From UHGV virus genome UHGV-0176909: a DNA stretch of 18,012 nt, one strand, 5' to 3'. The notes beneath the pieces were generated by a model. It was not told where the DNA came from and ran no database searches. It saw nothing but the letters and a program-made list of their open reading frames with translations. This DNA is from a virus. Position numbers and translations under genes: made by a program. Positions 2,822-3,790 of the stretch are shown piece by piece (the stretch's first letter is position 1; every line of letters starts with the position of its first letter).

Positions 2822-3790
2822 TTAGATTTCTGGTTTCATTCTTCCGAAAACCTTTTCTATTCCTTTTTCGTATTCTTCTCTTGTCTCACTCATCGCTGCG
2901 ACACCAAGAAGCTTACCGATATGCTGACGCAAAGCCTTGACACCAATTTCAGAAAGGAACAGATGCAACTTATCAGATTGTTTTCCGTTCTCGTCTCGGC
3001 TGGCTCGAATTTGTTCAAGGATTTTACCTTTACTCTTTGCTAGCGGGGTGTATATCTGCATGTTGGTTAGCTGCCCAAAACGAATAGGCCGTCCTTTCTC
3101 TGGCCTATTCAGGCCGTACAGTCGATACCACTCCTCGTATAGCTCATCTGGAAATTCCTTTTCATATTGACGAGCCTCTTCACGAACAAACGCTTTGAAC
3201 TCGTCAATGACAGCCTGAACTTCTGGACGATAACCAGCAAGCGCATACGCAACCCCCTTAATTCCCGCCTTAGCGGAGGCATTAATAAGTCTCTGTGCTG
3301 CGGCGGCTGCCTTTAACCGTGATTGTGGTAGATCGTCATTATCTTTGGCTTCTATTAGTGCCCTACCAATATCAACAATTGCTGTAATGTCATAACCTAA
3401 CGCTTGATGAACGGTTTTAGACTTCGAAGTAAGTTGAAATTTATAGGGATTTTCCATTTTTCGCTGCAATTCTAGATCTCGGTATTTGCTCATATACTGA
3501 GCGCCAAGCAGTTGATCTAAATCCCTGGCATGTTCACCAATCCCTAGCAACTGAGATAATCCAGTTTTCGTAACAACGACAGTTTTCGACTCGTCATCCA
3601 GTACATAACATTCAGCATCAATGCCAAAATCATCTAAAAAGTTACCACGATGAGTTGCCCTGAGAATCTTACTTTTCCATCTTGCAGCAGCTGCTTTCTT
3701 TGCTATTTCAGAACGCTGCTCTTTAGTCAGCGACTTTGCGCGAGCGATCCCGCCCTTAGCTTTCCCTTCGCCACTTTTCTTTTCAGTCAT
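2822..3790 (-). CDS. Hypothetical 322-aa protein with a Lys/Ala-rich N-terminal putative nucleic-acid-binding motif; function unknown
   Basis: ATG at 3790..3788 (MTEKKSGEGKAKGGIARAKSLTKEQRSEIAKKAAAARW...) is preceded by AGGTG about 10 nt upstream. The track's longer ORF starts at a TTG inside the upstream control region. AT-rich, hydrophilic, ends at the terminator above. Same strand as the late genes. Confidence 0.75.
   Translation of the reverse strand: MTEKKSGEGKAKGGIARAKSLTKEQRSEIAKKAAAARWKSKILRATHRGNFLDDFGIDAECYVLDDESKTVVVTKTGLSQLLGIGEHARDLDQLLGAQYMSKYRDLELQRKMENPYKFQLTSKSKTVHQALGYDITAIVDIGRALIEAKDNDDLPQSRLKAAAAAQRLINASAKAGIKGVAYALAGYRPEVQAVIDEFKAFVREEARQYEKEFPDELYEEWYRLYGLNRPEKGRPIRFGQLTNMQIYTPLAKSKGKILEQIRASRDENGKQSDKLHLFLSEIGVKALRQHIGKLLGVAAMSETREEYEKGIEKVFGRMKPEI

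Follow-up and report, generated by a model that had tools for sequence, protein, structure and literature searches.

A candidate self-repressing gene of the P63C family, shared by P22-like prophages and IS1-family transposons

The window analysed here is the whole 18,012-nucleotide stretch of the virus genome UHGV-0176909, and it comes from a P22-like (Lederbergvirus) phage or prophage, of which it covers the end of the late operon. Homologues of the P22 genes 3, 2, 1, 8, 5, 4, 10, 26, 14, 7, 20 and 16 lie on its minus strand from 17964 to 4153, gene 16 itself at 6066..4153. Near the other end are an immunity-I antirepressor gene with Bro-N and P22_AR_C domains (778..1722, minus strand), an Arc gene (1725..1949, minus strand) and a Mnt-like repressor gene (1977..2231, plus strand), which is co-transcribed with the gene of a ClpP-like protein (2231..2767, plus strand). 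The subject of this work is the 322-codon gene at 2822..3790 on the minus strand. An earlier reading of this DNA, made from its letters without database searches (the sequence-only reading), described the gene as convergent with a peptidase gene, and this is confirmed for the ClpP-like gene. It also placed the gene directly downstream of gene 16; this needs amending, as a 62-codon plus-strand ORF with a GTG start (3947..4135) intervenes. The two convergent genes have a bidirectional intrinsic terminator in common (2790..2817, by hairpin folding), with the stem 2796-2804/2809-2817 and flanking A/T runs. Read on the minus strand, the hairpin at 2796-2817 has a predicted energy of -17.4 kcal/mol and is followed by U6. 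The interval from gene 16 to the tailspike is the 'ant moron', where genes turn over rapidly and where P22 also has its exclusion gene sieA (PMC2629481).

The reading frame is intact, with its ATG at 3790..3788 and a TAA stop at 2824..2822. The longest possible ORF opens at a TTG at 3853, and the ATG at 3790 is the start kept in all homologues. The P63C assignment, which the sequence-only reading had offered tentatively, is correct: the protein matches PF10546 at residues 199-286 (2933..3196, minus strand; E 6.8e-14) with 52.7 bits against a Pfam gathering cut-off of 26.1, and all 37 of 37 aligned homologues match the same HMM. Nearly the whole protein, residues 6-321, also aligns to positions 4-328 of the 338 in phrog_2384, a family with no assigned function (E 1.7e-104). 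There are 1682 homologues, and those with a name are labelled only 'P63C domain-containing protein'. NCBIfam returned nothing for the protein, and our literature search found no publication describing what a P63C protein does, mentions of the domain being confined to genome reports without function. Frameshifts in related genomes had been named beforehand as evidence that would count against the gene. They are not seen: 80 of 80 prophage copies are intact, at 314-334 residues, and at the sequence level this is the mark of purifying selection.

The Lys/Ala-rich N-terminal motif, GGIARAKSLTKEQRSEIAKKAAAARW, is present as the sequence-only reading had described it, and no N-terminal feature of the family is better conserved. 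We propose the basic stretch around it, KAKGGIARAKSLTKEQRSEIAKKAAAARW (codons 10-38; 3677..3763, minus strand), as a DNA-reading arm; its residues G13, G14, A16, R17, R26, A30, R37 and W38 are invariant in 37 sequences. In the predicted structure (mean pLDDT 76) this arm is modelled as two helices, 12-20 and 23-39, with low to moderate pLDDT of 39-71, followed by a beta-rich domain (43-134) and a helical domain (137-315) that includes P63C. HMM searches matched the arm to no known DNA-binding family, and structure searches found no solved structure that resembles the model. Among the viral models of BFVD the best structural match is Myxococcus phage Mx8 p63. Weak Foldseek matches (E 0.03-1) are enriched in Bro-N and antirepressor (Ant) N-terminal domains, and the beta-rich domain is possibly Bro-N-like. 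The suggestion that the protein might be of the KilA-N, Bro-N or antirepressor type found nothing firmer than these structural hints: HMM searches at E up to 1 gave no Bro-N, KilA-N, P22_AR_N or P22_AR_C domain, and hhalign of the P63C protein against the window's own Bro-N antirepressor Ant gave a probability of 0.4%. Across phyla, the polar residues K111, E205, Y218, T242 and S253 are invariant in 75 sequences, and this conservation suggests an additional activity beyond DNA binding.

Upstream of the gene lie four copies of ATGCWWGCAT with at most one mismatch, at 3792, 3816, 3848 and 3872. Their cores are TGCAAGCA or TGCTTGCA and their centres are spaced by 24, 32 and 24 bp. The 18-kb window has no further match. 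Shuffles and our own arithmetic give an expectation of about 0.02 per 90-bp stretch, so that four together far exceed chance. Numbered outwards from the gene and read on the minus strand, S1 (GTGCTTGCAT, 3792..3801) lies between the ribosome-binding site AAAGG and the ATG, S2 (ATGCAAGCAT, 3816..3825) abuts and overlaps the -10 hexamer, S3 (ATGCTTGCTT, 3848..3857) contains a -35 hexamer and S4 is again ATGCAAGCAT (3872..3881). The minus strand thus runs from S4 through S3 with its TTGCTT (3853..3848) and an 18-nt spacer to a perfect TATAAT (3824..3829) at S2, then AAAGG, S1 and the ATG. The sites pair as inverted repeats, S4 with S3 and S2 with S1. That the gene has its own promoter with a perfect TATAAT, as proposed from the letters, is supported here by inspection and by conservation of a TAnAAT 5' of S2; a consensus scan omitted this promoter, whose TTGCTT agrees with the -35 consensus at 3/6 positions. 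Beyond S4, on the plus strand, a leader (3882..3949) reaches through a Shine-Dalgarno sequence, AAGGAGG, to the GTG at 3947-3949 of the divergent ORF.

In order to see how far this arrangement extends we scanned one genome per species, and obtained 80 loci with 41-73% protein identity, 79 of which were analysed for sites. They come from Enterobacterales, Burkholderiales, Alphaproteobacteria, Myxococcota, Acidobacteriota, Verrucomicrobiota, Chloroflexota and MAGs labelled Firmicutes. About 60 of the 79 have three or four copies of TGCAAGCA or TGCTTGCA ahead of the P63C gene, at offsets of about -87, -63, -31 and -7 and in a fixed alternating orientation, within surrounding DNA that has diverged. 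Fixed search windows recovered all four sites in 48/79 loci and at least three in 53/79, with several more at shifted offsets. Within the 48 four-site loci the spacings are 22-25, 30-32 and 23-24 bp, and the central dinucleotides run AA, TT, AA, TT in 45-48. The consensus over the loci has TAnAAT directly 5' of S2, TTGCAT within S3 and GGA-TGCTTGCA-TG at S1, so that the start codon takes its A from the last position of the site. The hosts of the array range from Enterobacterales to Acidobacteriota, Myxococcota, Verrucomicrobiota and MAGs labelled Firmicutes, and it is unusual for the same regulatory array to be found from Escherichia phages to Acidobacteriota. At closer range, nearly all of 80 IMG/VR prophage contigs carry the octamers, which stand out as islands of identity among 50 distinct upstream sequences. 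The idea that the repeats serve autoregulation, already put forward in the sequence-only reading, finds support in the recurrence of these four sites, at constant offsets, in dozens of loci from many phyla, and we regard it as a probable function on this strong comparative evidence.

Inverted repeats may also act as nucleic-acid hairpins, S4 with S3 and S2 with S1, for example by keeping read-through transcripts of the late operon from being translated. In the window, RNA of S2 and S1 forms a stem of 14 bp with the ribosome-binding site and AUG hidden inside (-16.4 kcal/mol, z -3.6), and for RNA of the whole array the folding energy is -40.5 kcal/mol (z -5.1). The sequence-only reading had proposed late expression by read-through; such a transcript is predicted to hide its start in this stem, and a transcript that begins about 7 nt after TATAAT lacks the 5' arm and would stay translatable. 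However, the pairing is broken at 17 of the 19 variable positions between S2 and S1 and at 10 of 16 between S4 and S3, with one and two double changes, respectively. Each octamer is conserved individually, including a frequent TGCTTACA variant at S1, and S4 and S3 lie upstream of the promoter, outside its transcript. Because departures from the consensus are uncompensated, we have rejected an RNA hairpin as the selected feature, and think it improbable that hairpins explain the repeats.

The gene and its operators move among prophages as a unit. The cassette, whose limits were drawn from ON470589 and L085, spans about 2791-3949 and comprises the terminator, the gene, the operators and, as far as its start codon, the leader of the divergent ORF; the terminator marks both the end of the P63C gene and the other edge of the cassette, where the match begins at about 2791. 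Escherichia phage vB_EcoP-611R6 carries it at 98.6% identity, without the ClpP-like gene and next to a different divergent gene, and at least 80% of it is present in 46 of 5426 complete Escherichia coli genomes. In another prophage the same slot holds a 54%-identical allele that has hardly diverged in its first ~35 codons and in its operator region. An Enterobacter lambdoid prophage carries a 61%-identical copy between its Q antiterminator and holin genes, with only S2 and S1 kept. The phage P63C gene is therefore part of a mobile cassette in the 'ant moron'. In the P22-like slot the sites persist both with and without the ClpP-like gene.

Elsewhere the gene has a different setting. In most other bacteria the gene and its array regularly belong to an IS1-family transposon: 34 loci from other phyla have a full-length IS1-family transposase gene as the divergent neighbour, and 17 more have part of one. 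The transposase is a DDE protein of ~300 residues with an N-terminal helix-turn-helix, and it matches PF03400 (DDE_Tnp_IS1) above the Pfam cut-off and NCBIfam NF033558 below the cut-off of that model. Terminal inverted repeats of the form GGTAGTGnnTCAGTTTGAA bracket the transposase gene, the P63C gene and a small gene, in elements of ~2.3-3.2 kb. Repeats GGTAGTG..TCAGTTTGAA together with 8-bp target duplications are found in at least ten copies, those with inverted repeats and 8-bp direct repeats including L028, L030, L043, L055, L063, L074, L077 and L078. IS1 ends have the form GGnnnTG, and its duplications measure 8-9 bp. Given inverted-repeat ends with flanking 8-bp direct repeats, these copies are identified as IS1-family elements that have transposed recently. 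In these elements S4 supplies a TTGCAT as -35 on the transposase strand, with CATAAT 17 nt on and 6-7 nt from the transposase ATG, so that the array would sit on two back-to-back promoters. The sequence-only reading of gene and array stands as regards P63C, the promoter and autoregulation; the status of the gene as transposon cargo and its mobility in the 'ant moron' had been missed.

The third gene of the element is convergent with the P63C gene, encodes 73-98 residues and overlaps the P63C stop in 27 loci. The C-terminus of its product, NPAAVALGRLGGLKGGKARAxxLTxEQRSEIAKKAAKARW, is the P63C N-terminal motif at 57-67% identity. The small proteins form a family of at least 7989 sequences, some of them annotated 'histone H1', with no Pfam domain. 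We also considered a toxin-antitoxin pair with the small protein and set it aside: the two genes converge and share the motif, and the prophage copies lack the small gene. A palindrome related to the four sites, ATGCTT-N6-AAGCAT, occurs at the transposase start, in the promoter of the small gene and in promoters of variable extra cargo. The occurrence of the shared motif with related sites, in the small protein and this palindrome, supports the motif as the probable reader of the DNA.

The window copy has the four-site array and a protein homologous to the transposon-borne copies. It is a relative of the transposon gene and not a transposon resident: neither the window nor any enterobacterial or prophage locus examined contains a transposase gene, and a search of the window with up to 3 mismatches found no GGTAGTG..TCAGTTTGAA ends. 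In the leader beyond S4 there is a weak similarity to the 5' region of the transposase (CATTATGAAC against CATTATCATC), and the transposase-side -10, CATAAT, is not preserved in the window. A neighbour-joining tree groups the enterobacterial prophage copies in one clade, which lies across the midpoint root from the transposon-linked diversity; transposase-linked copies are spread throughout the rest, where the 54% allele found in the same phage slot also has its place. From these comparisons we conclude that the phage and transposon genes belong to one family with what appears to be a single regulatory design. As to the direction, capture by phages from the transposon, with loss of the transposase and the element ends, seems the more likely; the monophyly of the prophage clade, its place across the midpoint root and the lack of transposon ends in the window count against it. 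The phage copy is thus probably a self-repressing transposon accessory gene that has been retained as a prophage add-on.

What binds the array? The sole constant companion of the four sites is the P63C gene, and since the sites persist where every neighbouring gene differs, its own product is the simplest binder. The alternatives are a host factor, the neighbouring Mnt-like repressor or the main repressor of the prophage. A Mnt-like gene does adjoin the cassette in several P22-like prophages; however, the array also occurs without mnt, in the Enterobacter lambdoid prophage and in transposon copies from other phyla, and on this ground we rejected Mnt. The main prophage repressor was rejected as well: a complete related prophage has no sites in its immunity region, and its only four-site cluster is at the P63C gene, with two scattered one-mismatch matches elsewhere. 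A host factor common to Enterobacterales, Acidobacteriota and Firmicutes-labelled MAGs, with sites only here, is implausible, and the sites change along with the protein in an acidobacterial subfamily. No neighbouring gene is common to all settings, and this excludes Mnt, the main repressor and the small transposon protein; that any other protein is the binder seems to us very improbable.

Some further indications come from joint changes of site and protein. The acidobacterial subfamily has an N-terminal extension and an altered motif, EIARAAIQARW, and carries two inverted TATACTTGCnCGGG sites instead of the array. In two unrelated loci, L045 and L081, Ser replaces Ile29 and GCACG replaces GCAAG in all repeats. 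Other lineages keep TGCAAGCA despite Ile29 changing to Arg or Gln, or GAKVLAE standing for GGIARAK; residue-to-base covariation therefore rests on two lineages, as other motif changes leave the TGCAAGCA sites unaltered, and the covariation of sites with protein is suggestive only.

Our best explanation, which we hold with somewhat more confidence than doubt, is that the P63C protein is a sequence-specific DNA-binding autorepressor, encoded in a self-contained cassette of promoter, operators, gene and terminator in the fast-changing 'ant moron' of a P22-like prophage. We infer all three of its elements: the P63C protein itself as the binder, the part of it that binds and the regulatory outcome. 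The protein would bind the four 8-10-bp sites with the core TGCAAGCA, and the basic two-helix arm at its N-terminus is the part most likely to do so. With S3 holding the -35, S2 abutting the -10 and S1 filling the spacer between ribosome-binding site and ATG, occupancy would block RNA polymerase and keep the level of P63C protein low and constant. In the transposon, where S4 is the -35 of the transposase, accumulated P63C protein would also shut off the transposase, and the element might undergo a burst of transposition in a naive cell and then fall silent. The phage copy would have lost the transposase and the ends, and the gene is nevertheless kept intact in many prophages. Two points qualify this account: the conservation of S3 and S4 could be due in part to their role in the promoter (TTGCAT as -35) and not to repressor binding, and a length of 320 residues, more than a plain repressor needs, together with the invariant polar residues suggests an activity that autorepression leaves out.

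The size of the protein, far larger than a repressor requires, also bears on another view of the array, as a recombination site like the res site of Tn3, with P63C as a new site-specific recombinase or transposition helper (e.g. in cointegrate resolution) and repression as a by-product. The layout is indeed Tn3-like, with a transposase and an accessory gene diverging from several inverted-repeat sub-sites; the strict polarity of the asymmetric central AA/TT is less usual for operators than for recombination sites, and the invariant Y218, S253, E205 and K111 could be catalytic. However, the -35 TTGCAT within S3 and S4 also accounts for the fixed polarity. HMM and structure searches found no serine or tyrosine recombinase catalytic domain or fold in the protein, nor similarity to any solved fold, prophages keep the gene and the sites without a transposase partner, and one prophage lineage retains only S2 and S1. 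We therefore consider a recombinase unlikely. We give a similarly small chance to the proposal that P63C is a DNA-acting accessory enzyme of a widespread, cross-phylum IS1-family transposon, a novel type of site-specific recombinase, resolvase or transposition helper, which acts on the four-site array and has been borrowed repeatedly by prophages.

Autorepression also leaves room for a second role in the phage. The phage copy may be an effector moron as well, which excludes or aborts phages or mobile elements, or acts in an antirepressor-like way, with the operators limiting its harm. The cassette occupies classic moron slots, the 'ant moron' and the interval from Q to holin, it has its own promoter and terminator, and it stays intact without the transposase. 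The prophage offers no other sites to regulate, and the weak structural matches are, as noted above, enriched in Bro-N and antirepressor N-terminal domains. Against this, none of those families is matched by HMM, and the PADLOC defence models gave 0 families at E up to 0.1. We regard an effector role as possible but rather doubtful; it adds to the autorepressor reading and does not replace it.

The P63C domain occurs in more than a thousand phage and bacterial proteins, and this analysis offers a testable DNA target for them, four copies of TGCAAGCA in a fixed geometry. The candidate reading motif recurs in a very large family of small proteins, some of which carry the 'histone H1' annotation. 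The natural setting of the gene would be an IS1-type transposon whose transposase the P63C protein should control. If this is true, there exists a three-gene IS1-family transposon with its own control circuit, a part of which has turned into a stand-alone prophage moron, and the cassette is a compact and portable autoregulated expression module. It also raises a question: what is the role of the conserved 280-residue body in a prophage?

How does this compare with known systems? The closest is the family itself, PF10546 or PHROG 2384, to which the window's protein belongs by a domain above the cut-off, a full-length match to phrog_2384 and its best viral structural match, Mx8 p63. The Mx8 protein is the founder of PF10546, a family that has a name and no function; the four-site array, the shared N-terminal motif and the IS1-type link are new here, none of them being described in the literature searched. 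P63C presumably stands in Pfam beside the domains of the Bro/KilA/Ant group of shuffled-domain phage regulators, of which the window's own P22-type antirepressor (778..1722) is an example. It resembles that group in being phage-borne, in its location at immI and the 'ant moron' and in the weak fold matches to Bro-N and Ant N-terminal domains. It differs in lacking an HMM match to Bro-N, KilA-N or P22_AR, and in the proposed control by its own operators, not by Arc or Mnt.

Among transposons, the accessory protein of Tn3 and gamma-delta, TnpR, acts at the res site and represses both genes, the repression being a by-product. The transposon copies of P63C share the divergent transposase and accessory genes, with inverted-repeat sub-sites over both promoters, and the same logic would be expected. 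In contrast to TnpR, P63C is without a serine-recombinase domain or fold, and the transposase is of the IS1 type. There are two 32-bp paired sites here, compared with three sub-sites in Tn3. In IS1, InsA is a small repressor that derives from the transposase's reading-frame system and binds the terminal inverted repeats. In both cases an IS1-family element encodes a DNA-binding protein expected to lower the activity of the transposase promoter. Unlike those of InsA, the proposed sites of P63C are internal, its gene is a separate one of 320 aa on the other strand, and the element encodes a second, small protein with the same motif.

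Mosaic boundaries between phages fall at a single codon. Divergent from the P63C gene lies a 62-codon ORF (window 3947-4135, plus strand; phrog_21338), whose hydrophobic product is read from a GTG start preceded by AAGGAGG. This start codon is the exact position of the mosaic junctions between phages, so that the same leader is kept while different genes are plugged in behind it.

In an Enterobacter lambdoid prophage (L086 5820-5900) the P63C cassette occupies the Q-to-holin interval, immediately downstream of a sequence resembling the 3′ terminus of a tRNA gene (GGTTCGAATCC). 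In the prophage of strain E189 (L003 21003-22382 and 22382-23443) the annotation calls the gene 16 homologue a pseudogene and marks it as incomplete, while a stretch of about 1.4 kb adjoining the cassette is without annotation. This prophage may be defective.

The P63C gene also travels in IS1-type elements, where it can be accompanied by a small minus-strand gene (e.g. L012 5969-6208 and L055 3615-3902). The small protein, of 73-98 aa, is found in these two loci and 25 others, and its C-terminal end, KGG..ARA..ARW, is the same motif as in the P63C protein. Its family comprises at least 7989 sequences and has no Pfam domain; some members carry the annotation 'histone H1'. Some copies of the transposon (L028 777-3534, L043 3561-6255 and L074 3389-6564) host at their right end an additional small gene that is unrelated, with the palindrome ATGCTTAGCGGAAAGCAT in the promoter ahead of it. 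The cargo of the transposon is thus variable and stands under a second type of operator.

In immunity region I of the window, Arc is listed as a 74-codon ORF (1725-1949, minus strand). The Arc domain spans only residues 25-74; the true start is probably internal, as it is for the annotated Arc proteins of related phages (50-62 aa). Next to it lies an apparent mnt-protease operon (1977-2767, plus strand): an 84-aa Mnt-like repressor with Arc and Repressor_Mnt domains, and a 178-aa ClpP-like serine protease (PF00574, E 4e-12), their genes overlapping by ATGA. Phage phiv205-1 and prophage L085 have this pair too, whereas vB_EcoP-611R6 and strain E189 lack it.
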